A stretch of DNA of 46,746 nucleotides from Struthio camelus (taxonomy: Eukaryota). Location of the stretch: NCBI RefSeq assembly GCF_040807025.1, contig NC_090973.1, forward strand, positions 935,107-981,852, read 5' to 3'. The position numbers and the translations under genes were made by a program. The notes below the pieces were generated by a model. That model worked only from the letters and a program-made list of their open reading frames with translations, was not told the DNA's origin and made no database searches. This document shows positions 1-44,100 of the stretch, piece after piece; position 1 is the first letter of the stretch, and each line of letters begins with the position of its first letter.

Positions 1-1090
1 CCATGGTGGGTCCCGATGTCCCCTGAGGAGATGTTTTGCCCCCTAGTGACCTCACCTGCCCCACAGCAAGCTCACCCAACCCCCAGAGACCTCACCTGCC
101 CCCCGGTGACCTCACCCGCCCCAGTGAGGAGCTCATTTGCCCCATGGTGGGTCCTGAAGTCCCCCGAGGAGATGTTTTGCCCCCTAGTGACCTCCTCTGC
201 CCCTCGGTGACCTCACCTGCCCCCGTGATGAGTTCGTCTGCCCCATGGTGGGTCCCGATGTCCCCTGAGGAGATGTTTTGCCTCCTGATGACCTCACCTG
301 CCCCGCAGCAAGCTCACCCAACCCCCAGAGACCTCACCTGCCCCCCGGTGACCTCACCCGCCCCAGTGAGGAGCTCATTTGCCCCATGGTGGGTCCTGAA
401 GTCCCCCGAGGAGATGTTTTGCCCCCTAGTGACCTCCTCTGCCCCTCGGTGACCTCACCTGCCCCCGTGATGAGTTTGTCTGCCCCATGGTGGGTCCCGA
501 TGTCCCCTGAGGAGATGTTTTGCCCCCCGGCGACCTCCTCTGCCCCTCGGTGACCTCATCTGTCCCCCCGGTGACCTCACCCACCCCAGTGAGGAGCTCA
601 TCTGCCCCATGGTGGGTCCCGATGTCCCCTGAGGAGATGTTTTGCCTCCTGATGACCTCATCTGCCCTCCAGTGACCTCATCTGTCCCCCCGGTGACCTC
701 ACCTGCCCCCGTGATGAGCTCATCTGCCCCATGGTGGGTCCCAATGTCCCCTGAGGAGATGTTTTGCCCCCTAGTAACCTCCTCTGGCCCCCGGTGACCT
801 CACCCATCCCCATGATGAGTTCATCTGCCCCACGATGGGTTGAGATGTCCCCTGAGGAGATGTTTTGCCCCCTAGTGACCTCATCCGCCCCACAGCAAGC
901 TCACCCGCCCCCCAGAGACCTCACCTGCCCCCCGGCGACCTCACCCGCCCCCGTGATGAGCTCATCTGCCCCACGGTGAGTCCCAATGTCCCCTGAGGAG
1001 ATGTTTTGCCCCCTCGGCGACCTCCTCCACCCCCCGGTGACCTCCTCTGTCCCCCCCCCCTCCGGCGACCTCACCCACCCCACAGCAACC
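1..1090 (+). repeat. Tandem array of about 120-bp units (about 242-bp higher-order repeat), about 9 copies, derived from the MVP start-codon region
   Basis: Units recur at about 1, 140, 243, 383, 485, 605, 725, 832 and 965. Each carries ..gccccATGGtgggtcc..cacagcaagctcacc..acctcacctgccccccggtgacctcacccgcccc. These are the same blocks that flank the true ATG at 1080-1135. Confidence 0.8.
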
Positions 1091-1319: not shown

Positions 1320-4300
1320 GGCGTCTGGGGGGGGCCTCTATAGGGCGCTTTATGGGCCTACGGGGGCTCTGTGGGGTTGTGGGGTTCCTATAGGGCTTTT
1401 TAAGGCTGTGTGAGACCCTATAGGGGGTTCTTTAGGGCTTCGGGACGTCTATAGGGCTCTGCGGTTCCTATAGAGTCCTGCATGGCTCTGACAGGCTTTA
1501 CAATAAATTATATAGATAATATGATGTATCTATAGGACGTTGTGGTATCTATAGGACTCTATAAGGCCATGGGGGGGGTATATAAGGGACTCTCCAGAGT
1601 TAAGGAGCCTCTATAGGGCTCTGGGCTTCCTTCAGGGCTATGGGGAGTGTTGAAGGGTTCTTTAGGGCTGGGGGGGGGGCTATAGGATGTGGGGGGGGTA
1701 TGGAGGGACTCTATAGGGCTGCGGGGTCCCTATAGGATCCATGGGGAGGTGGGGGGGGTCTCTGTGGGGCTGAGGGGGCTCTATAGGGCTCCGGGGACCC
1801 TCTAGGGCTGTAAGGGGTGTTGAGGGGCTCTCTAGGGGTGTGTGGGGGGGGTCCCTATAGGGCCATAAGGAGTTTGAGGGGCTCTATAGGGTTGGGGGGG
1901 GTCCATAGGGCTACGGTGGGTGTTAGGGAGCTCTATAGGGCCGTAAGTACTTCTACAGGGCTGTGGGGGTTGGGGGGGCTTTATGAAACTATGGTGTTCC
2001 TATAGGGCCTGGCAGTATGTTGAGGTCTTTATAGGGAAGCGAGGTGCCTAGCGGGGTTTCTATAGGGTTATGGGGATGCTGGAGGGCTCTATAGAGCCTG
2101 GAAGAGGTGTTGGGGGGCTCTGTAGGGCTGTGGGGCCCCTCCAGGGCTGGAGGGGGTGTTGGGGGCCCTCTAGGGCTGTGGGGGCTCTATAGAGTCGTGG
2201 GGGGTGCTGGGGGGGGGTCCTGTAGGGCTGTGGGGCCCGTATAGGGCCAGGGGGTGTCAGAGGGCTCTATAGGTTGTGGGGGGTGGGTGCTGGGGGGCTC
2301 TATAGGGTGCTGAGGGGCATCAGGGGCTCCTATAGGGTTGTAGGGGGTCTGGGGGGCTCTATAGGGCACTAAGGGGGGTGGGGGACTCCTATAGGGCTGG
2401 TAGGGGGTGTGGGGGCCTCTCTAGGGTGCTAAGGTGTATTGGGGACTCCTATAGGGCTGGGGGGGCTGGGGGGGTTCTATAGGGTGCTAAGGGGTGTGGG
2501 GGACTCCTATAGGGGCTGGGGGGGCTCTATGGGGTGCTAAGGGGTGTGGGAGACTCCTATAGGGCTGGGGGGGCTCTATAGGGCACTAAGGGGTGTGGGA
2601 GACTCCTATAGGGCTGGGGGGGCTCTATAGGGCACTAAGGGGTGTGGGAGACTCCCATAGGGCTGGGGGGGCTCTATGGGGCACTAAGGGGTCTGGGAGA
2701 CTCCTATAGGGCTGGGGGAGTCTCTAGGGTGCTAAGGGGTCTGGGGGACTCCTATAGGGCTGGGGGGTCTCTAGGGTGCTAAGGGGTCTGGGGGGCTCCT
2801 ATAGGGCTCCTAGGGGGGCTGGGGGACTCCTATAGGGCTGGGGGGGTCTCTAGGGTGCTAAGAGGTCTGGGGGGCTCCTATAGGGCTCCTAGGGGGGCTG
2901 GGGGACTCCTATAGGGCTGGGGGGGTCTCTAGGGTGCTAAGGGGTCTGGGGGGGCTCCTATAGGGCTCCTAGGGGGGCTGGGGGACTCCTATAGGGCTGG
3001 GGGGGTCTCTAGGGGGCTAAAGGGTCTGGGGGGCTCCTATAGGGCTCCTAGGGGGGCTGGGGGACTCCTATAGGGCTGGGGGGGTCTCTAGGGTGCTAAG
3101 GGGTCTGGGGGGCTCCTATAGGGCTCCTAGGGGGGCTGGGGGACTCCTATAGGGCTGGGGGGGTCTCTAGGGTGCTAAGGGGTCTGGGGGACTCCTATAG
3201 GGGCTGGGGGGGCTCTATGGGGTGCTAAGGGGTGTGGGAGACTCCTATAGGGCTGGGGGGGCTCTATAGGGCACTAAGGGGTGTGGGAGACTCCCATAGG
3301 GCTGGGGGGGCTCTATGGGGCACTAAGGGGTGTGGGGGACTCCTATAGGGCTGGGGGAGTCTCTAGGGTGCTAAGGGGTCTGGGGGACTCCTATAGGGCT
3401 GGGGGGGCTCTATGGGGCACTAAGGGGTGTGGGGGACTCCTATAGGGCTGGGGGGGTCTCTAGGGTGCTAAGGGGTCTGGGGGACTCCTATAGGGCTCCT
3501 AGGGGGGCTGGGGACTCCTATAGGGCTGGGGGGGTCTCTAGGGTGCTAAGGGGTCTGGGGGACTCCTATAGGGCTGGGGGGTCTCTAGGGTGCTAAGGGC
3601 TCTGGGGGGCTCCTATAGGGCTCCTAAGGGGTCTGGGGGCTCCTATAGGGCTGGGGGGGTCTCTAGGGGGCTAAAGGGTCTGGGGGGCTCCTATAGGGCT
3701 CCTAGGGGGGCTGGGGACTCCTATAGAGCTGGGGGAGTCTCTAGGGTGCTAAGGGGTCTGGGGGACTCCTATAGGGCTGGGGGGTCTCTAGGGTGCTAAG
3801 GGCTCTGGGGGGCTCCTATAGGGCTCCTAGGGGGGCTGGGGGACTCCTATAGGGCTGGGGGGGTCTCTAGGGGGCTAAAGGGTCTGGGGGGCTCCTATAG
3901 GGCTCCTAGGGGGGCTGGGGACTCCTATAGGGCTGGGGGAGTCTCTAGGGTGCTAAGGGGTCTGGGGGGCTCCTATAGGGCTCCTAGGGGGGCTGGGGGA
4001 CTCCTATAGGGCTGGGGGGGCTCTAGGGTGCTAAGGGGACTGGGGGGCTCCTATAGGGCTCCTAGGGGGGCTGGGGGCTCCTATAGGGCTGGGGGGTCTC
4101 TAGGGTGCTAAGGGGTCTGGGGGGCTCCTATAGGGCTCCTAGGGGGGCTGGGGGACTCCTATAGGGCTGGGGGGGTCTCTAGGGTGCTAAGAGGTCTGGG
4201 GGGCTCCTATAGGGCTCCTAGGGGGGCTGGGGGACTCCTATAGGGCTGGGGGGGTCTCTAGGGTGCTAAGGGGTCTGGGGGGGCTCCTATAGGGCTCCTA

Positions 4301-5790
4301 GGGGGGCTGGGGGACTCCTATAGGGCTGGGGGGGTCTCTAGGGTCCTAAGGGGTCTGGGGGGCTCCTATAGGGCTCCTAGGGGGGCTGGGGGACTCCTAT
4401 AGGGCTGGGGGGGTCTCTAGGGTGCTAAGGGGTCTGGGGGGGCTCCTATAGGGCTCCTAGGGGGGCTGGGGGCTCCTATAGGGCTGGGGGGTCTCTAGGG
4501 TGCTAAGGGGTCTGGGGGGGCTCCTATAGGGCTCCTAGGGGGGCTGGGGGCTCCTATAGGGCTGGGGGGGTCTCTAGGGTGCTAAGGGGTCTGGGGGGCT
4601 CCTACAGGGCTCCTAGGGGGGCTGGGGGCTCCTATAGGGCTGGGGGGGTCTCTAGGGTCCTAAGGGCTCTGGGGGGCTCCTATAGGGCTCCTAGGGGGGC
4701 TGGGGGACTCCTATAGGGCTGGGGGGGTCTCTAGGGTGCTAAGGGGTCTGGGGGGCTCCTATAGGGCTCCTAGGGGGGCTGGGGGCTCCTATAGGGCTGG
4801 GGGGATCTCTAGGGTCCTAAGGGCTCTGGGGGGCTCCTATAGGGCTCCTAGGGGGGCTGGGGGACTCCTATAGGGCTGGGGGGGTCTCTAGGGTGCTAAG
4901 GGGTCTGGGGGGCTCCTATAGGGCTCCTAGGGGGGCTGGGGGACTCCTATAGGGCTGGGGGGGTCTCTAGGGTGCTAAGGGGTCTGGGGGGCTCCTATAG
5001 GGCTCCTAGGGGGGCTGGGGGCTCCTATAGGGCTGGGGGGGTCTCTAGGGTGCTAAGGGGTCTGGGGGGCTCCTATAGGGCTCCTGGGGGGGCTGGGGGC
5101 TCCTATAGGGCTGGGGGGGTCTCTAGGGTGCTAAGGGGTCTGGGGGACTTCTACAGGGCTCCTAGGGGGGCTGGGGGCTCCTATAGGGCTGGGGGGGTCT
5201 CTAGGGTGCTAAGGGCTCTGGGGGGCTCCTATAGGGCTCCTAGGGGGGCTGGGGGCTCCTATAGGGCTGGGGGGGTCTCTAGGGTGCTAAGGGGTCTGGG
5301 GGGCTCCTATAGGGCTCCTAGGGGGGCTGGGGGCTCCTATAGGGCTGGGGGGGTCTCTAGGGTGCTAAGGGGTCTGGGGGGCTCCTATAGGGCTCCTAGG
5401 GGGGCTGGGGGACTCCTATAGGGCTGGGGGGGTCTCTAGGGTGCTAAGGGGTCTGGGGGACTCCTATAGGGCTCCTAGGGGGGCTGGGGGCTCCTATAGG
5501 GCTGGGGGGTCTCTAGGGTGCTAAGGGGTCTGGGGGGCTCCTATAGGGCTCCTAGGGGGGCTGGGGCCTCCTATAGGGCTGGGGGGTCTCTAGGGTGCTA
5601 AGGGGTCTGGGGGGCTCCTATAGGGCTCCTAGGGGGGCTGGGGGACTCCTATAGGGCTGGGGGGGGTCTCTAGGGTGCTAAGGGGTCTGGGGGACTCCTA
5701 TAGGGCTGGGGGGGTCTCTAGGGTGCTAAGGGGTCTGGGGGGCTCCTATAGGGCTCCTAGGGGGGCTGGGGGGGTCTCCGAGGGGCTCCA
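1320..5790 (+). repeat. CTATAGGG-core minisatellite in MVP intron 1. It is degenerate at 1320-2400. At 2400-5790 it is a homogeneous unit of about 80 bp with about 40 copies.
   Basis: Unit: gggggactcctatagggctgggggggtctctagggtgctaaggggtctggggggctcctatagggctcctaggggggct, repeated nearly identically. Confidence 0.9.
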
Positions 5791-15779: not shown

Positions 15780-18545
15780 CCCTGCGCCGCTCCCCCCCGG
15801 AGACCCTAGAGACCCCCAGAGACCCTGCAGACCCCCCTTAACCCCCTACAGTTGCCCCCAAACCCTCTAGAGCCCCTAGAGACCCCCCAGAGACCCTATA
15901 GACCCCTCAGAGCCCCTAGAGACCCCCTTAACCCCCTACAGACCCCCCGAACTCCATAGAGCCCCTAGAGACCCCCCAGAGACCCTGCAGACCCCCCTTA
16001 ACCCCCTACAGATGCCCCCAAACCCTCTAGAGCCCCTAGAGACCCCCCAGAGCCCTAGAGACCCCTTAACCCCCAACAGAGCCCCCCAAACTCCGTAGAG
16101 CCCCTAGAGACCCCCAGAGCTCCTAGAGACCCCCCTTAACCCCCTACAGACCCCATTAACCTCCTATAGACCCCCAAACTCCTTAGAGTCCTTAGAGACC
16201 CCCAAGAGCCCCTAGAGACCCCCTTAACCCCCTACAGACCCCCCGAACTCCATAGAGCCCCTAGAGACCCCCAGAGACCCTGCAGACCCCCCCTTAACCC
16301 CCTACAGTTGCCCCCAAACCCTCTAGAGCCCCTAGAGACCCCTCAGAGACCCTGCAGACCCCCCTTAATCCCCTATAGTTGCCCCCAAACCCTCTAGAGC
16401 CCCTAGAGACCCCCCAGAGACCCTATAGACCCCTCAGAGCCCCTAGAGACCCCTTAACCCCCAACAGAGCCCCCCAAACTCCGTAGAGCCCCTAGAGACC
16501 CCCAGAGACCCTGCAGACCCCCCTTAACCCCCTACAGATGCCCCCAAACCCTCTAGAGCCCCTAGAGACCCCTCAGAGACCCTAGAGACCCCCTTAACCC
16601 CCTACAGACCCCCCGAACTCCATAGAGCCCCTAGAGACCCCCCAGAGACCCTGCAGACCCCCCTTAACCACCTACAGATGCCCCCAAACCCTCTAGAGCC
16701 CCTAGAGACCCCCCAGAGCCCCTAGAGACCCCTCAGAGCCCCTACAGACCCCTTAACCCCCTACAGACCCCCCGAACTCCATAGAGCCCCTAGAGACCCC
16801 CAGAGACCCTGCAGACCCCCCTTAACCCCCTAGAGACCCCACTAACCTCCTATAGACCCCCAAACTCCTTAGAGCCCTTAGAGACCCCCCAGAGCCCCTA
16901 CAGACCCCCTTAACCCCCTAGAGACCCCCCTTAACCCCCTAGAGATCCCCAAACTCCCTAGAGCCCCTAGAGACCCCCAGAGACCCTAGGGATCCTCCTT
17001 AACCCCCTAGAGATCCCCAAACTCCCTAGAGCCCCTAGAGACCCCCAGACCCCCTAGGGACCCCTTTAACCCCCTAGAGCTCCCCTTAATCTCCTAGAGA
17101 CCCCCCCAAACTCCTTGGAGCCCCTAGAGACTCACCAGAGCCTCTAGAGACCCCCTTAACCTCCTATAGACCCCCCAATCTATGTAAAGCCCCTAGAGCC
17201 CCCCAGAGCCCTTAGAGACTCCTCTTAACCCCCTATAGACCCCCCAAACCCTCTAGAGCCCCTAGAGACCCCCCAGAGCCCCTATAGACTCCTCAGAGCC
17301 CCTAGAGACCCCTTAACCCCCTACAGATGCCCCCAAACCCTCTAGAGCCCCTAGAGACCCCCAGATACCCCAAAGACTCCTGTTAACCCTCTACAGACCC
17401 CCCCAAACTCCCTAGAGAGCCCTTAGGGACCCCCCCCAACTCCCTAGAGACCCCCCAGAGCCCCTAGAGACTCCCTTAACCCCGTATAGAGCCCCCCCCG
17501 AACTCCCTAGAGCCCCTGGAGACCTTCCTTGACCCCCTACAGACCCCTCAAAGCCTCCTAGAGCCCCTAGAGACCCCCCAAACCCCCTATAGACACCCCA
17601 AATCTCCTAGAGCCCTTAGAGACCCCCCCAGAGCCCCTAGAGACCCCCTTAAGCTCCTATAGACCCCCCTCGAGCCCCTATAGGCTCTCTAGAGCTCTTA
17701 TAGATCTCCGTTAACCCTCTACAGACCCCCACCCAAACCCGTAGAGAGCCCCCGAGCCCCTATAGAGCCCCGTAACCCCTCCTAGACCCCTGCAGAGCTC
17801 CAAACCCCCCAGTGACCCCCTGCAGCGCCCTCAGTCCCAGTGCCCCCCTATAGCGCTCTCAGCCCCCCTCCCAGGGCCCCCAAACCCCTCCCAGTGCTCC
17901 CAGTGCCTCCCAGTCCCCTCCCAATGTTCCTGGTCCCTCCCAGTCCTCTCCCAGCCCCCCAGCAATTCCCTCCCAGTGTTCCCAGTCCCCTTCCCAGTCC
18001 CTCCCAGGCCCCTCCCAGGCCCCCCAGCTCCCCTCCCCGTGCTCCCAGTACCACCAGTCCTTCCCAGTTCCCTCCCAGTGCCCCCAGTCCCTCCCAGTGC
18101 TCCCAGTGCCCCCAGTTCCCTCCCAGTGCCCCCAGTCCCTCCCAGCCCTCCTCCCAGTGCCTCCAGTTCCCTCCCAGTGCTCCCAGTCCCCTCCTAGTCC
18201 CTTTCAGCACTCCCAGTTCCTCTCAGCCCCCCTCCCAGTGCTCCCAGTGCCCCTAGTCCCTCCCAGTTCCCTCCCAGTGCTCCCTGTACCTCCAGTTCCC
18301 TTGCAGTTCCTTTCAGCTCCCCTCCCAGTGCTCCCAGTCCCTCCCAGTCCCTCCCAGCCCCCCTTCCCATGCCCCCAGTTCCCTCCCAGTGCTCCCAGTA
18401 CCCTCCCATTCCCCACCTAGTCCCTCCCAGCCCCCTCCCAGTGCTCTCCGTACCTCCAGTTCCCTCCCAGTGCCCTCCCAGTCCCTCCCAGCCCCCTCCC
18501 CAGCGCTCCCAGTGCCCCCAGTCCCCTCCCAGTGCCCCCCCCCGG
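15780..18545 (+). repeat. MVP intron 8: about 85-90-bp ccctagagaccccccagagaccct(g/a)(c/t)agacccccttaaccccctacag repeat (15780-17810), then 20-24-bp ctcccagtgctcccagtccc repeats (17810-18545)
   Basis: Direct tandem recurrence throughout. The CTAGAG/CTATAG cores are related to the intron 1 and intron 2 satellites. Confidence 0.85.
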
Positions 18546-22259: not shown

Positions 22260-24365
22260 GCCCGTCCCGCGTCACCCCGCGTCACCCCGCGTCACCCCGC
22301 GTCCTCCCAGGTCACCCCGTGTCCTCCCGGGTCACCCCGTGTCATCCTGGGTCATCCCGCGTCATCCCACGTCCCCACCTCGTCCTGGGTCACCCCAGGC
22401 CACCCCGTGTCACCCCGTGTCCTCCCGGCTCACCCCGTGTCATCCTGGGTCATCCCGCGTCATCCCGGGTCATCCCGCGTCATCCCACGTCCCCACCTCG
22501 TCCTGGGTCACCCCGTGTCATCCTGGGTCACCCCACGTCATCCCACGTCCCCCACCTCATCCCGGGTCACCCCGTGTCATCCTGGGTCATCCCGCATCAT
22601 CCCACGTCCCCACCTCATCCTGGGTCACCCCAGGCCACCCCGTGTCACCCCGTGTCATCCTGGGTCACGCCGTGTCCTCCCGGCTCACCCCGTGTCATCC
22701 TGGGTCATCCCGCGTCATCCCACATCCCCACCTCGTCCTGGGTCACCCCAGGCCACCCCGTGTCACCCCGTCTCATCCTGGGTCACCCCTTGTCCTCCCG
22801 GCTCACCCCGTGTCATCCTGGGTCATCCCGCATCATCCCATGTCCCCACCTCGTCCTGGGTCACCCCGTGTCCTCCCATGTCACCCCGTGTCCTCCCAGG
22901 TCACCCCATGTCCTCCCGGCTCACCCCGTGTCATCCTGGGTCATCCCGCGTCATCCCACGTCCCCACCTCGTCCTGGGTCACCCCAGGCCACCCCGTGTC
23001 ACCCCGTGTCATCCTGGGTCACCCCGTGTCCTCCCGGTTCACCCCGTGTCACCCCGTGTCATCCTGGGTCATCCTGCGTCATCCCACATCCCCACCTCGT
23101 CCTGGGTCACCCCAGGCCACCCCGTGTCACCCCGTGTCATCCTGGGTCACCCCTTGTCCTCCCGGGTCACCCTGTGTCATCCTGGGTCACCCCACGTCAT
23201 CCCACGTCCCCCACCTCGTCCCGGCTCACCCCAGGCCACCCCGCGTTGTCCCACGTCCTCCTATGTCACTACCTGTCATCCCCGCGTCACCCCCCTGGTG
23301 ACACCTCGCGCCAGCCCACGTCATTCCTGCCCGTCCCCGTGCCCCCGCTGCCCCCCAACGTCCCTCTGTCCTTGTGTCCCCTGAGCTCCCTGTGTGCCCC
23401 ATGTCCCCGACGTCCCTGAGGTTGCCCAATGCCATCTGCAATGTCCTCGATGTCCCCTGATGTCCCCAGTGTCCCCAACACCCCCAATGTTTTCAATAGG
23501 CCCGATGTCCCCTAACGTCCCTGATGTCCCCTAACATCCCCGATGTCCTCAATGCCCCCAGCATCTCCAGTGTTGCTGATGTCCCCAATGTCCCCAGTGT
23601 CCCCAATGCCCCATTTTCAACGGCCCCCATGTCCCGACACCCCCGATGTCCTCAGCGCCCCCAACATCTCCAACGTCCCTGATCTGCTCGATGCCGCCGA
23701 CATCTTCAGGGTCCCCCATGTCCCCTGACATCCCCGATGTCCTCGGCGCCCCCAACATCTCCAACGTCCCTGATCTGCTCGATGCCGCCGACATCTTCAG
23801 GGTCCCCCATGTCCCCTGACATCCCCGATGTCCTCGGCGCCCCCAACATCTCCAACGTCCCTGATCTGCTCGATGCCGCCGACATCTTCAGGGTCCCCCA
23901 TGTCCCGACACCCCCGATGTCCTCAGCGCCCCCAACATCTCCAACGTCCCTGATCTGCTCGATGCCGCCGACATCTTCAGGGTCCCCCATGTCCCCTGAC
24001 ATCCCCGATGTCCTCAGCGCCCCCAACATCTCCAACGTCCCTGATCTGCTCGATGCCGCCGACATCTTCAGGGTCCCCCATGTCCCCTGACATCCCCGAT
24101 GTCCTCGGCGCCCCCAACATCTCCAACGTCCCTGATCTGCTCAATGCCGCCGACATCTTCAGGGTCCCCCATGTCCCCTGACATCCCCGATGTCCTCGGC
24201 GCCCCCAACATCTCCAACGTCCCTGATCTGCTCGATGCCGCCGACATCTTCAGGGTCCCCCATGTCCCCTGACATCCCCGATGTCCTCGGCGCCCCCAAC
24301 ATCTCCAACGTCCCTGATCTGCTCGATGCCGCCATCTTCAGGGTCCCCCATGTCCCCTAACATCC
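22260..24365 (+). repeat. MVP intron 11: gtcaccccgtgtcatcctgggtcatcccgcgtcatcccacgtccccacctcgtcctgg family (22260-23300), then a 91-bp unit with about 9 copies (23400-24365)
   Basis: The 91-bp unit is gtcccctgacatccccgatgtcctcggcgcccccaacatctccaacgtccctgatctgctcgatgccgccgacatcttcagggtcccccat. It recurs at 23720, 23811, 23901, 23991 and 24082. Confidence 0.85.
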
Positions 24366-32399: not shown

Positions 32400-35197
<2,798 letters not shown>

Positions 35198-39356: not shown

Positions 39357-39493
39357 CGGGCGGCGACGATGACGGCGTCGGGCTCGGGCCAGCGCAGCCC
39401 CGGCAGCCGCCGCAGCCCGGCCCGGGCCGCCAGGAAGAGCCCGGGGAAGAAGACGAAGCCGCCGGCCAGCAGGGCACCCGGGGGGGCCGCCAT
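39357..39493 (-). CDS. TLCD3B: TLC domain-containing protein 3B (FAM57B), coding exon 1: MAAPPGALLAGGFVFFPGLFLAARAGLRRLPGLRWPEPDAVIVAA(R)
   Basis: Minus-strand ATG (plus CAT at 39491-39493). Matches the human TLCD3B N-terminus M..VAGGVVFPGLFLLSKNTLQRLPQLRWEEADAVIVSAR. Donor cccg|GTACCG on the minus strand, phase 2. Confidence 0.8.
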
Positions 39494-39499
39494 GAGCGG

Positions 39500-40900
39500 G
39501 GGGGGGCGGGGGGCGGGGGGGGGCACAGGGACCTGCCCGGCCCGGCCCGGCCCGCCGGCCCCGCCGGGAGCGACGCTGGGGGCGGGGCCTGAGGGGGGCG
39601 GGGCAACAGAGGGGGCGGGGTCTGAGGGGGGCACAGGGACCTGCCCGGCCCGCCGGCCCCGCCGGGAGCGACGCTGGGGGCGGGGCCTGAGGGGGGCGGG
39701 GCTTGAGGGGGCGGGGTCTGAGGGGGGGCACAGGGACCTGCCCGGCCCGGCCCGGCCCGCCGGCCCCGCCGGGAGCGACGCTGGGGGCGGGGCCTGAGGG
39801 GGGCGGGGCTTGAGGGGGCGGGGTCTGAGGGGGGCACAGGGACCTGCCCGGCCCGGCCCGGCCCGCCGGCCCCGCCGGGAGCGACGCTGGGGGCGGGGCC
39901 TGAGGGGGGCGGGGTCTGAGGGGGCGGGGTCTGAGGAGGGGCACAGGGACCTGCCCGGCCCGCCGGCCCCGCCGGGAGCGATGGTGGGGGCGGGGCCTGA
40001 GGGGGGCGGGGCCTGAGGGGGGCGGGGTCTGAGGGGGGTGGGGTCTGAGGGGGGCACAGGGACCTGCCCGGCTCGGCCCGGCCCGCCGGCCCCGCCGGGA
40101 GCGACGCTGGGGGCGGGGCCTGAGGGGGGCGGGGTCTGAAGGGGGCGGGGTCTGAGGGGGGGCACAGGGACCTGCCCGGCCCGCCGGCCCCGCCGGGAGC
40201 GACGCTGGGGGCGGGGCCTGAGGGGGGCGGGGTCTGAGGGGGCGGGGTCTGAGGGGGGCACAGGGACCTGCCCGGCCCGCCGGCCCCGCCGGGAGCGACG
40301 CTGGGGGCGGGGCCTGAGGGGGGCGGGGCCTGAGGGGGCGGGGCCTGAGGGGGGGGGCACAGGGACCTGCCCGGCCCGCCGGCCCCGCCGGGAGCGATGG
40401 TGGGGGCGGGGCCTGAGGGGGGTGGGGCCTGAGGGGGGGGCACAGGGACCTGCCCGGCCCGCCGACCCCGCCGGGAGCGATGCTGGGGGCGGGGCCTGAG
40501 GGGGGCGGGGCCTGAGGGGGGGCACAGGGACCTGCCCGGCCCGGCCCGGCCCGCCGGGAGCGACGCTGGGGGCGGGGCCTGAGGGGGGCGGGGTCTGAAG
40601 GGGGCGGGGTCTGAAGGGGGGCACAGGGACCTGCCCGGCCCGGCTCCGCCCTGCCGGAAGCAATGCTGGGGGGGGTCTGAATGGGGGCGGGGCCTGAGGG
40701 GGGCGGAGTCACAGGGGGATGCAGGGACCTGCCTGGCCCTGCCGGGAGTGATGCTGGCGGCGGGGCCATGGGGCGGGGTCACAGGGGGTGGGGCCTAAGG
40801 GGGCGGGGGGCTACCTGGCCCGGCCCGGCCCTGCCTTGGGGGTGACCCTGGGGGCGGGGCCTAAAGGGGGCGGGGCCTAAAGGGGGCGGGGCGTGAGGGC
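39500..40900. repeat. About 105-bp tandem repeat, about 13 copies, rich in GC-boxes (GGGGCGGGGCCTGAGGGG), immediately upstream of the TLCD3B ATG (5' UTR or proximal promoter)
   Basis: cacagggacctgcccgg recurs at 39525, 39633, 39730, 39837, 39944, 40055, 40164, 40260, 40360, 40443, 40524, 40623 and 40716. Confidence 0.9.
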
Positions 40901-41197
40901 AGCCCAGGGAGGGGGCACCATTCTGGTGGGGGGGGGGAGCTAGCCCCACTGGGAGGGATGTGGGGGTGGGGCTACGGTGGGAGGAGCGAAGTGGGGGCGG
41001 GCCTTGGGGGAAAGTGTTGAGGGGCGGGGCCTCCAGGGGGAGGGATGTGGGGCGGGGCTAAAGGGAAAGGAGGGGGGGTGCCCTGCTTCCCACTCCCCCC
41101 TTCCAAAATGGCAAGGAGAAGGGACCCGGGCGTCCTGCCACTCCCCCCCAACAGCGTTCCCAGGCCCCGCCCCCGCCCCTCCCCACGGGAAACCCTC

Positions 41198-41390
41198 ATT
41201 TGCATATATTTGCATATCACTTGTAGGCCCCTCCCCACTGGGAGGGGGCAGGTTGGGGGGAGGAGCTGAGCCAGACCCTCTGCGTGCATGCAGCCAGCAC
41301 GCCATCGCACCTAGACGTATTTGCACATATTTGCATAAATTTGCAAACATTTGCATACATTTGTGTACATTTGCCTACATTTGTGCGCGC
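41198..41390. promoter_or_regulatory. 10-bp-phased array of octamer motifs ATTTGCAT (POU/Oct site) and single-base variants
   Basis: Perfect ATTTGCAT at 41198, 41208, 41329 and 41349. Variants atttgcac, atttgcaa, atttgtgt, atttgcct and atttgtgc sit at exact 10-bp spacing through 41319-41386. Another ATTTGCAT is at 41944. Confidence 0.6.
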
Positions 41391-41399
41391 CCCTCCCCC

Positions 41400-41850
41400 T
41401 CGAGGGCGCCGCGCGTTGTCCGAGCAACGGCCGCCGCCGAGCCGGGTGGCGCTCGGCGCATGCGCCGCCCGCCACCCGCCAGCGCCCCTCCCTATTGGCC
41501 GCGGCCGGCAGCCAATGGGAGGCGGCGGGACGCGGCGCGTTGCCAGGCAGAGTCTCGGCGCGCCGCGCTGAAAGGGCGGCTCCGATTGGCGCCGGGGCCA
41601 GCGCCTGAGGCGAAGGCGCCACCGCGCCGCGCGCCTCGCTGATTGGCCCCGCCGGGAGTGTCCCCACTCTGTGGGCAACGCCCCTCTCCACCCCCGGCCA
41701 ATAGGAAGGCGCGAGGCGGCGTTTCCATGGCACCCGCACCGCCTCCCGCTTCCGGGTGGCTACCTCAGCACCGCCTCGCTGGAGCGCGCGCCGGGTGGGG
41801 GGGGGGAGGTGTTGCCGCAGCAACCGCGCATGCGCGTCAGAGGGTCATTA
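41400..41850. promoter_or_regulatory. CpG-island promoter, probably bidirectional (TLCD3B on the minus side). It has five CCAAT/ATTGG boxes and two GCGCATGCGC (NRF1-like) palindromes.
   Basis: ATTGG at 41494, 41585 and 41642. CCAAT at 41512 and 41697. gcgcatgcgc at 41457-41466 and 41826-41835. Very high CpG density and no TATA box. Confidence 0.6.
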
Positions 41851-42075
41851 GTATTCATGAAGGGCACCGCGACTACATGAATATTTATGAGGAAGGCGGG
41901 GCCTTGCTGAGTGGCGGGGTGGGCGGGGCTCCCGGACAGGGTGATTTGCATACAACAGCCCTTCATGCGGAAGGGTGGGTGCAGGGCTCATGAATATTGA
42001 TGAGGACATGTCATAAATTATTAATGAGGGAGATGCAGCTCTTCTCCCACGTGACTGTGGGAAATAGCCCCTCCC

Positions 42076-42477
42076 ATTGCCATGGAAACTGAGGCCTATT
42101 CGGTTGCCATGGAGACTGTCAGCCCAGGGGGGGGAGGAGCTGTCCTGTCGCCATGGAGATTGTCAGTCAGCTCGGGGGGGGGGTTCTACCCTGTCACCAT
42201 GGCGACTGTTACAGTGGTTGGGGGGGTGTCCTACTGCCATCACCATGGAAACCACAACCTTCCTGGTTGCCATGGAAACTGTCAGTCTGCTGGGGGGGCA
42301 CTACCCTGTCGCCGTGGCGACTGTCACAGTGGTCTGAGGCCTACCCCCGTTGCCATGGAAACCGGGACCTACCCCCCCCCACCATCGCCACACACATTGG
42401 GGAGGGCTCCCCCCACCTACCTGGTTGCCATGGCAACCACCACCGTGCACCTACCCCCCCCAGGTCGCCACGGCGAC
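42076..42477. promoter_or_regulatory. Array of about 10 RFX-type X-box palindromes (GTYGCCATGGMRAC), including a perfect GTTGCCATGGCAAC at 42424-42437
   Basis: gttgccatggaaac at 42078, 42267 and 42351. gttgccatggagac at 42104. gtcgccatggagat at 42147. gtcaccatggcgac at 42193. gtcgccgtggcgac at 42308. gtcgccacggcgac at 42464. Confidence 0.55.
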
Positions 42478-42612
42478 CGCCTCCCCCCCCCCTCAAAACC
42501 AGGCCCTCGCGGCCTGGCCCGTTTCCACGGTTACCCGGAGCCTGCCGGCAGTTTGGGGGGGGCCAGGCCCCTCCCCGGCGCCCAGGCCAGGGGCCGGCGG
42601 GGGCGGGGGGGG

Positions 42613-42732
42613 CTATTTTTAGCCCCCGAAAAGGCCAGGGGTCGGCGGAAAGGTCGCCGGGGGGGGGGGAGGCCCTAGATAAGGGGCGGCGCTGGGGGGC
42701 CGGGGGGCAGCGGGACCCGGCGCTGCCCCACG
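42613..42732 (+). promoter_or_regulatory. Candidate muscle-type alternative promoter and non-coding first exon. It has a MEF2/TATA-like CTATTTTTAG (42613-42622) and a GATA motif AGATAA (42677-42682). The exon would end at donor cacg|GTGAGT (42732/42733).
   Basis: The only A/T-rich MEF2 consensus in a GC-rich context. It is followed about 110 nt later by a perfect GTGAGT donor. Compatible with an ALDOA-like pM exon. Confidence 0.3.
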
Positions 42733-42779
42733 GTGAGTCGGGGGGTCCCTGCGGCCCCCTGGGGTGGGGGGGATACCCC

Positions 42780-44100
42780 CCCGTGCCCTAAATAACCCCC
42801 CTGACACCCCAAATACCCCCCTGACACCCCCCTGGGCAGCTCTATAACCCCCCCCAGCACCCTAAATACCCCCCCGGCACCCCCATATCCCCCTCAACAC
42901 CCCAAATACCCCCCTGACACCCCAAATACCCCCCTGACACCCCCCTGGGCAGCTCTATACCCCCCCAGCACCCTAAATACCCCCCCTGGCACCCCCATAT
43001 CCCCCTCAACACCCCAAATACCCCCCTGGCACCCCAAATGCCCCCCTGGCACCCCCCCCGGCAGCCCTATACCCCCCCTGGCACCCCAAATGCCCCCCCG
43101 GCACCTCTCTCAGCACCCCCAAATACCCCCCCCGACACCCCCCTGGGCAGTCCTATACCCCCCTGGCACCCCAAATACCCCCCTGACACCCCCCCCGGCA
43201 CCCCAAATACCCTCCAGGGCTCCCCCAAATGCCCACCCAGGATCACATATACCCCCCTAGACCCCCCGCAAATACTCCGTGGGACCCCCTAAATACCCAC
43301 CCAGGACCCTATATGTCCTCCTAGACCCCCCAAATACTCCCTCAGCACCCCAAATACCCTCCCTGACCCCCCCAAATATCCCCTGAGACCCCCAAATTCC
43401 CCTCTGGAATGCCAACTACCACCCAGGACCCCATATACTCCCCTAGACCCCCTCAAATAACCCCCTGTGACCCCCCAAATACCCACCCAGGACCCCAAAT
43501 ACTCACCCAGGACCCCATACGCTCCTGTAGACCCCCCCCAAATAACCCCCAGGACCCCCCCAAATACCCACCCAGGACCCCAAATATCCCCAAATAACCC
43601 CCCTAGACCCCCCAAATTCCCCCCCAGGACCCCAAATACACCCCTAGACCCCCCCCAAATAACCCCAGGACCCCCAAATCCCCCCCAGGACCCCAAATAC
43701 CCATCCAGGACCCCAAATACCCCCTTAGACCCCCCCAAATAACCCCCAGGACCCCCCAAATACCCACCGAGGACCCCAAATGCCCCCCAGACCTCCCAAA
43801 TAACCCCTGGGACCCCCAAATACCCACCCAGGACCCCCTATTACCCCCAGACTCCCCCCAAATAACCCCCGAGACCCCCAAATCCCCCCCAGGACCCCAA
43901 ATACCCACCTAGGACCCCCCTAAACCCCCAAATAACCCCTGGGGCCCCCAAATCCCCCCCAGGACCCCAAATACCCACCTAGGACCCCCCTTAAACCCCC
44001 CCAAATAACCCCTGGGACCCCCAAATCCCCCCCAGGACCCCAAATACCCACCTAGGACCCCCCTAAACCCCCAAATAACCCCCGGGACCCCCCCCAATTC
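42780..44100. repeat. 20-30-bp minisatellite ccccaaatacccccctgacacc / cccaggaccccaaatacccac
   Basis: Continuous recurrence of ccaaata(c/a)cc. Confidence 0.85.

Follow-up and report, generated by a model that had tools for sequence, protein, structure and literature searches.

Whether the octamer motifs that recur every 10 bp beside a CpG island in the ostrich (Struthio camelus) genome form a platform for POU transcription factors, a by-product of repeat expansion, or the remodelled part of an older regulatory element was the question raised by the stretch of 46,746 nucleotides analysed here (contig NC_090973.1, positions 935,107 to 981,852, forward strand; hereafter the window). The motifs lie in the intergenic region between TLCD3B, a ceramide-synthase gene, and the glycolytic gene ALDOA. 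Comparison of this region with its counterparts in crane, falcon and turtle led us to the reading, which we hold to be probable, that it is a conserved cis-regulatory module of the head-to-head TLCD3B-ALDOA pair, in which two homotypic clusters of POU-type sites bracket a CpG island of NF-Y/NRF1/RFX type and the decamer array has been amplified locally.

Exact copies of the octamer ATTTGCAT were found at 41198, 41208, 41329, 41349 and 41944, all on the plus strand, and nowhere else in the 46.7-kb window. Against these five copies, which span 41198-41951, 0.17 were expected, and none of 100 shuffled sequences reached five. Sharing one orientation, they read as ATGCAAAT in the sense of TLCD3B. 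The palindrome ATGAATATTCAT likewise had only three matches with up to two mismatches in the window, all within 41847-42001, where 0.14 were expected; the five exact octamers and the three MORE-like sites were thus confined to about 800 bp. Motifs rich in AT (GC 0.20-0.52) stand between flanks with a GC of 0.67-0.83, and this retention of AT-rich cores within GC-rich surroundings suggests that purifying selection may act on them. As judged from the matched consensus sequences, the motifs on either side of the island are of POU type.

Informative orthologous loci were available from crane (L004), falcon (L005) and turtle (L009). All four species shared one order of elements, running from the TLCD3B ATG through GC-box or other repeats, octamer(s) in the same orientation, an NRF1 palindrome, and CCAAT boxes with X-boxes to MORE-like palindromes. 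In the three birds the X-boxes and then a block resembling the muscle-type promoter of ALDOA (pM-like) followed, and the turtle locus ended before ALDOA. The window and the turtle additionally had an octamer amid the MORE-like sites and then TTAATGAGG, so that the ALDOA-side order of MORE, MORE, octamer, MORE and TAATGAGG was the same in the window and in turtle L009 7424-7103, and in the crane TTAATGAG overlapped a MORE-like site. The three birds also shared the composite (G/A)AATATTnAT(G/A)AGG followed by a GC box, together with CTCATGAATATT(A/G)A. Relative to shuffled sequences, the turtle had 8 octamers (0.25 expected) and 6 MORE-like sites (0.07 expected), the falcon 4 MORE-like sites (0.53 expected), and the crane 2 octamers (0.32 expected) and 3 MORE-like sites (0.87 expected); in crane and falcon every octamer or MORE-like match in the ~24-kb locus fell within the orthologous ~600 bp. 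Meanwhile, the motif cores were invariant amid poorly conserved flanks, the alignments of the two clusters having mean column identities of 47-54%. The preliminary description of this DNA, made from its letters alone, had proposed POU-type sites on both flanks of the island, had called for a comparison of orthologous regions and had named absence of the motifs there as grounds for giving the idea up; they were present, in the same order, in all three species, and the sites on the two flanks are not attributable to chance. Motif identity, enrichment, order and orientation conserved in the turtle and three bird lineages, and a gain of copy number in one lineage were accordingly observed directly. 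The features of the window are collected in Table 1.

Table 1. Coordinates, strand and basis of the features of the TLCD3B-ALDOA intergenic region (positions of the window)
Feature	Position	Strand	Basis or remark
TLCD3B coding exon 1	39357..39493	-	tblastn, splice-site reading; ATG 39493
GC-box (Sp1-type, GGGGCGGGG) minisatellite, 40 boxes	39503..41057		Tandem Repeats Finder (TRF); between TLCD3B exon 1 and octamers
Distal octamer doublet, ATTTGCATAT x2 (two exact ATTTGCAT, 10 bp apart)	41198..41217	+	TRF: perfect two-copy array
Decamer array, seven head-to-tail units, consensus ATTTGCATAC	41319..41388	+	TRF, unit reading
CpG island	41389..41835		447 bp, GC 0.774, CpG observed/expected 1.02
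Island of variant-MORE-like POU dimer sites, putative	41846..42029	+	motif matches, order shared with turtle
MORE-like ATTAGTATTCAT	41847	+	2 mismatches to ATGAATATTCAT
MORE-like ATGAATATTTAT (also read as ATGAATATTTATGAGG)	41877	+	1 mismatch to ATGAATATTCAT
Octamer ATTTGCAT	41944	+	exact
MORE-like ATGAATATTGAT (also read as ATGAATATTGATGAGG)	41990	+	1 mismatch to ATGAATATTCAT
Brn-3-like ATTAATGAGG, containing TAATGAGG at 42022	42020	+	consensus resemblance
E-box CACGTGAC, contains ACGTG	42048..42055	+	motif reading
RFX X-box-like palindromes, ten, type GTTGCCATGGAAAC	42076..42477		outside POU clusters; context only
ALDOA muscle-type (pM-like) promoter and non-coding first exon, putative	42613..42732	+	block shared with crane, falcon

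The decamer array was then read unit by unit. Nine octamers or near-octamers at exact 10-bp spacing had been counted at 41319-41386; the motifs and the 10-bp period are real, but the units number seven, and nine is reached only by adding the octamers at 41198 and 41208, which had been listed apart. In order, the units are ATTTGCACAT, ATTTGCATAA, ATTTGCAAAC, ATTTGCATAC, ATTTGTGTAC, ATTTGCCTAC and ATTTGTGCGC. Two are exact octamers, while the others carry 1, 1, 1, 2 and 3 mismatches, the last unit being the one with three, and TRF reported a period of 10 over 41319-41383 with 6.5 copies and 83% matches. In the MAFFT alignment of this site (block mean column identity 54%), units 4-5 of the window aligned to a doublet in each of the other three species, reading ATTTGCATACATTTGCCTAC in crane, ATTTGCATATAGTTGCGTAC in falcon and ATTTGCATACATTTGCATGC in turtle, and the columns ATTTGCATA.A.TTG..T.C did not vary among the four. 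The doublet has the form ATTTGCATACATTTGCAT, with two octamer-type sites spaced 10 bp apart, and seven units in the window thus stood against two in each of the other species, a difference of five. At the distal site, CCCTCATTTGCATAT, the crane kept a single intact octamer (CCCTCATTTGCATATcttggcgtct) and the falcon sequence was degenerate.

On the reading suggested by the spacing, the octamers, seven to nine in number, would constitute a selected, helically phased platform on which POU proteins would line up on one face of the helix and bind cooperatively. Such a platform is lent some colour by the direct 10-bp doublet, which turtle and crane share and falcon keeps in part, by the second perfect doublet in the distal position, and by the constancy of ATTTG in 7/7 array units, all 11 departures from the unit consensus falling within positions 6-10. 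What would be expected of it, however, is several intact sites at multiples of ~10.5 bp with the phasing kept across species, and what was found is two intact units of seven, a doublet alone in the other three species, and turtle octamers that beyond the doublet are spaced 67, 40, 37, 48 and 32 bp apart. Furthermore, exact 10-bp spacing needs no selection, because expansion of a decamer yields it automatically, and arrays of period 8-12 abound in the window (43 TRF rows, including arrays of 95 and 179 copies). We therefore consider a phased platform unlikely. Head-to-tail units of period 10 whose copy number varies between lineages (7 versus 2) are the properties of a micro- or minisatellite, and on this comparison the array reads as a mostly lineage-specific tandem amplification of an old two-copy motif, the conserved feature being the doublet and not a phased platform. 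Invariant ATTTG and the age of the 10-bp doublet nevertheless leave a modest possibility that adjacent octamer sites matter functionally.

The opposite extreme, that the array is a neutral decamer microsatellite resembling octamers by chance and that neither it nor the AT-rich patch has a regulatory role, is very improbable in our judgement. Recent slippage had been named in the preliminary description as the case that would undo its proposal, and for five of the seven units it applies; it does not extend to the doublet itself, which the other species conserve. TRF classes the array as a tandem repeat, 76% of the window is tandem repeat, and copy number varies among species, all of which agrees with neutrality. 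Other factor-site units of the same intergenic region have been amplified as well, with ten X-boxes against two and 40 GC boxes against ~4 in the falcon. On the other hand, four species, birds and turtle, have an unvarying octamer core at the corresponding site where the flanks have diverged, and the MORE-like island, which is not repetitive, keeps its order and orientation between species, so that the neutral reading is already strained by conservation. Among 359 TRF rows, moreover, the octamer array is the only one with a consensus GC below 0.45, which fits ordinary local expansion seeded on a conserved AT-rich site. Tandem-repeat-rich, GC-rich DNA is known from bird microchromosomes and dot chromosomes (PMC9974502). 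The window resembles such DNA, and promoter micro- and minisatellites bearing factor sites, in its GC content of 69%, its proportion of tandem repeat and its GC-box, X-box and octamer arrays; it differs in that the octamer array is its only AT-rich array and appears to have grown from a motif kept since the common ancestor of birds and turtles.

On the ALDOA side of the CpG island, the AT-richer patch earlier placed at 41850-42040 was confirmed, GC being 0.519 over 41836-42045. MORE, a site of POU homodimers, is ATGCATATGCAT, and its variant ATGAATATTCAT was the top de novo motif in chromatin immunoprecipitation (ChIP) sequencing of class III POU factors in neural stem cells; Brn2 and class IV factors also bind this variant as dimers (PMC4576985). 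As in that motif, 12-bp palindromes recur in this island, exactly in the turtle and with one or two mismatches in falcon, crane and the window; by the pattern ATG(A/C)ATAT(G/T)CAT, the window copies carry 1, 1 and 2 mismatches and none is exact, the turtle has an exact ATGAATATTCAT, and falcon and crane come within one mismatch. Unlike the published sites, all window copies (ATGAATATTTAT, ATGAATATTGAT, ATTAGTATTCAT) are imperfect, and binding by dimers is putative. The turtle island contains, in order, ATAAATATTCAT, ATCAATATTCAT, ATTTGCAT, the exact ATGAATATTCAT, ATGAATATCAAT and TAATGAGG. The Brn-3 consensus oligonucleotide is GCGCGTTAATGAGCTGTG, and the Pit-1 oligonucleotide contains TGAATATGAATAA (PMC2425483). 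Window ATTAATGAGG, turtle GTTAATGAGG and crane ATTAATGAGC resemble the Brn-3 (POU4F) core GTTAATGAGC at the level of consensus, as TGAATAT/ATGAATA resembles the Pit-1 (POU1F1) sequence. Several details of the first reading of this patch were amended. The octamer at 41944 is indeed exact. The repeated (T/G)ATGAGG motif is present, although its true form is ATGAATATT(T/G)ATGAGG, one T longer, and an inverted, degenerate third copy lies at 41846-41863. The E-box exists as CACGTGAC and starts at 42048 instead of 42049; CACGTG also occurs in crane and turtle, its position relative to the other motifs not being fixed. The label TAATGARAT-like fails strictly, because the sequence at 42022 is TAATGAGGG and lacks the final AT of TAATGA(A/G)AT.

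Octamer-type sites could in principle be functional and yet be read by factors other than POU proteins, such as other homeodomain, forkhead or C/EBP-like factors, or could act structurally, phased ATTT tracts bending the DNA or excluding nucleosomes at the edge of the island. Phased A/T tracts curve DNA, ATTTG recurs in exact 10-bp phase over 70 bp, and TATTTGC at three unit junctions of the array fits the forkhead core TRTTTRY. What is conserved, however, goes beyond AT-richness to the full ATTTGCATA core and the 12-bp MORE-like palindromes; species with two units could not form a phased bend, and exact ATTTGCAT and ATGAATATTCAT are canonical POU sites. This explanation is accordingly regarded as improbable.

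The octamer ATGCAAAT/ATTTGCAT is the site of Oct-1 and Oct-2 in immunoglobulin, histone H2B and small nuclear RNA (snRNA) promoters. As in those promoters, the exact 8-mers of the window are promoter-proximal and share one orientation; unlike them, they form a homotypic cluster next to a CCAAT/NRF1 island that a ceramide-synthase gene and a glycolytic gene have in common, with no TATA box, proximal sequence element (PSE) or snRNA associated. Since octamers are a hallmark of snRNA and H2B promoters, we considered whether they might belong to another type of gene (as an snRNA-type distal element or an H2B-type promoter) or to the remnant of a transposable element. Across the whole window no Rfam family was matched at gathering score, with two chance-level matches only (E ~0.9) in 40500-43000, and the six open reading frames overlapping 40940-42791 showed no Pfam family. 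An snRNA-type octamer enhancer (distal sequence element, DSE) was rejected as a candidate, as Rfam revealed no downstream snRNA or other small-RNA gene. In addition, turtle and birds have the motifs between the same pair of genes, a conserved position that argues against a recent transposable-element insertion. An origin of either kind is exceedingly unlikely.

We thus return to the conserved TLCD3B-ALDOA module. The TLCD3B-side cluster is made up of octamers, and the ALDOA-side cluster combines one octamer and a Brn-3-like TTAATGAG with palindromes of variant-MORE type (ATGAATATTCAT-like). In the mechanism proposed here, Oct-1/POU2F1 would occupy sites in most tissues, class III and IV POU factors would bind the MORE-like sites as dimers in neural tissue, and the bound factors would modulate the adjacent CpG-island promoter(s) toward TLCD3B, ALDOA or both. 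An ancestral doublet (ATTTGCATAC ATTTGCNTNC) would have grown to seven units in the lineage of the window, through replication slippage or unequal exchange, after which most of the added units would have decayed; these extra units are presumably largely neutral. From the motifs we infer occupancy by POU factors and modulation of the adjacent promoter(s), and we likewise infer that the octamer side serves TLCD3B, whose ATG in the falcon is only ~200 bp away from the octamer. For the MORE side, either gene may be the target. In human colon-cancer cells, POU2F1 gave a ChIP signal at -900 to -450 of the ALDOA promoter and activated it (PMC8837540), and in comparable fashion the MORE-like island of the window lies ~650-850 bp upstream of the pM-like exon of ALDOA.

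Several points weigh against this module. The human POU2F1 site is defined by a TAAT core only and lies at one of several ALDOA promoters (PMC8837540), and would be at most a candidate counterpart of the sauropsid module. Each MORE-like site of the window carries one or two mismatches, and the crane counts by themselves (2 versus 0.32; 3 versus 0.87) are weakly above chance. Informative orthologues number only three: TLCD3B-like loci of Anser cygnoides (L002) and Cygnus olor (L006) are without octamer or MORE motifs and lie in a different neighbourhood, and the loci available for cuckoo, manakin, jay and owlet-nightjar do not extend into the region, the Cyanocitta contig ending 1.6 kb upstream of the gene, those of Manacus and Aegotheles being too short, and the 10-kb upstream flank of the cuckoo consisting of repeat DNA with no island. 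The comparison covered sauropsids, the mammalian region falling outside it, as the chimpanzee 10-kb flank ends before any CpG island. In a metagenome scan, the pattern ATTTGCATACATTTG-N(70-100)-GCGCATGCGC had no match.

A bolder version of the idea sees in the region a POU switch of two parts, octamers on one side of the NF-Y/NRF1/RFX island and MORE-type dimer sites on the other, which would go back at least to the common ancestor of birds and turtles and would co-ordinate neural TLCD3B with glycolytic ALDOA. In this version the amplification in the bird lineage of the window (2 to 7 octamers, 2 to 10 X-boxes and GC boxes up to ~40) was adaptive, tuning or buffering promoter output in hypermutable, GC-biased microchromosomal DNA; we think it improbable. 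In humans both genes map to the 16p11.2 interval, for which an association with brain disorders has been published. If POU factors do occupy the sites, the TLCD3B-ALDOA module would be a compact and deeply conserved case of homotypic POU-site clusters controlling a head-to-head gene pair. The locus also illustrates how tandem-repeat expansion multiplies transcription-factor sites in place on GC-rich bird chromosomes, and natural alleles with 2 and 7 sites would make dosage effects directly testable. Each ingredient (octamers, MORE sites, CpG-island promoters, repeat expansion) is familiar, and current understanding is not challenged; the locus is a further example of a conserved homotypic factor-site cluster in a head-to-head promoter with repeat-driven amplification of sites.

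The genes of the locus were identified as follows. The window ranges from 60 to 81% in GC, and outside the repeats its segments without stops encode, on the plus strand, the major vault protein (MVP) and, on the minus strand, the final exon of a protein with a TLC domain. By tblastn and reading of splice sites, the latter was extended to five coding exons of TLCD3B on the minus strand, whose spliced product of 265 amino acids is 85-92% identical to bird "ceramide synthase/FAM57B" proteins (86% to the "ceramide synthase" of Balearica). A viral or other non-vertebrate origin, for which the TAATGARAT-like motifs, the GC boxes and the high GC content had brought a herpesvirus to mind, was rejected in view of the intron-containing MVP and TLCD3B genes, the 76% of tandem repeat and the matches to bird proteins. 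In crane and falcon a class I aldolase (PF00274) lies immediately upstream of TLCD3B in divergent orientation, in agreement with tblastn with ALDOA. The earlier identification of the locus as the TLCD3B/ALDOA intergenic region therefore stands. The ALDOA coding sequence was not found in the window by tblastn with a human protein query, and only an upstream non-coding exon of the gene falls inside. The block containing this exon has a perfect MEF2 consensus CTATTTTTAG at 42613, a TATA-like TAGATAAGG at 42676 and a short exon ending at 42732 as CCCACG followed by GTGAGT, with the splice donor GT at 42733; it is collinear with crane L004 ~8394-8240 and falcon L005 ~8845-8715, both upstream of aldolase coding exons. 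Because of its position, MEF2 consensus, TATA-like box and splice donor, it was assigned as the putative muscle-type promoter and first exon of ALDOA. No housekeeping (pH-like) ALDOA promoter was identified in 42.8-46.7 kb, a stretch of repeat DNA. TLCD3B and the pM-like exon flank the element divergently in the window, the distance to exon M, measured from the TLCD3B ATG and not from start sites, being ~3.2 kb there and ~1.2 kb in the falcon; a bidirectional promoter with one shared island would be expected to have its start sites less than ~1 kb apart.

The CpG island between the two clusters (defined as at least 200 bp with GC >0.55 and CpG observed/expected >0.65) contrasts with the whole window, in which CpG observed/expected is 0.43. 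It contains NRF1-type palindromes GCGCATGCGC at 41456 and 41826, five CCAAT boxes (41494-, 41512+, 41585-, 41642- and 41698+) and X-box-like sites at 41721 (GTTTCCATGGCACC) and 41811 (GTTGCCGCAGCAAC), in keeping with its first characterization as a CCAAT/NRF1 CpG island. By BLAST it is collinear with crane L004 9348-9144 and matches turtle L009 8482-8424, and a turtle gene model on the minus strand has its start, L009 8461, inside the orthologous island. Beyond the MORE-like island, the X-box-like palindromes include the variants GTTGCCATGGAAAC, GTCGCCGTGGCGAC and GTTGCCATGGCAAC with neighbours 27-75 bp apart, crane and falcon each having two at the orthologous place, and all 8/8 strict GTNRCCNNRGNRAC matches of the window lie within 41811-42477. 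On the other side, the GC-box minisatellite of ~1.5 kb is built from GGGGGCGGGGCCTGAG; it is shorter in the crane and nearly absent from the falcon.

Further observations concern the POU-type sites of the other species and the two neighbouring genes. The octamer side of the turtle has five exact octamers in ~200 bp and, counting two ATcTGCAT and ATGAATAATCAATGAGG, extends over ~350 bp. A near-canonical MORE lies on the TLCD3B side, between the two octamer positions, in falcon (L005 9835-9824, ATGCATATGCAG) and crane (L004 9519-9508, ATGCATATTCAG), and its counterpart in the window, GCGTGCATGCAGCCAGC around 41283-41299, has lost the central ATAT. In Anser cygnoides and Cygnus olor the TLCD3B-like gene is flanked by olfactory-receptor and kinesin (PF16796 and PF00225) genes and not by ALDOA, which might reflect a rearrangement, a paralogous gene or faulty assembly. 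An alternative first coding exon of TLCD3B (MGLIFLFSCCFFPLFFLALRW...), upstream of the canonical exon 1, was seen in turtle (L009 10001-10126), with a primate counterpart in chimpanzee (L010); neither the window nor any bird locus examined had a counterpart of this exon 1a. In the intron just downstream of exon 3 of TLCD3B, the window carries at 34109-35135 on the minus strand ~7 degenerate tandem copies, ~155 bp apart, of the 3' end of that exon ("..LMV..MVLVCFPVAAV"), the repeat unit thus carrying an exon fragment. At 2001-5000, three successive 1-kb bins have CpG observed/expected of 0.00-0.05 at GC 64-67%, a GC-rich repeat block that is nearly free of CpG. MVP and TLCD3B are convergent in the window, as in the turtle, and the MVP exons (10-26 kb, plus strand) are separated by very large short-period tandem arrays, among them those at 15862-17647 (ACCCCTAGAG, 179 copies) and 22265-23203 (TCCCGGGTCA, 95 copies).

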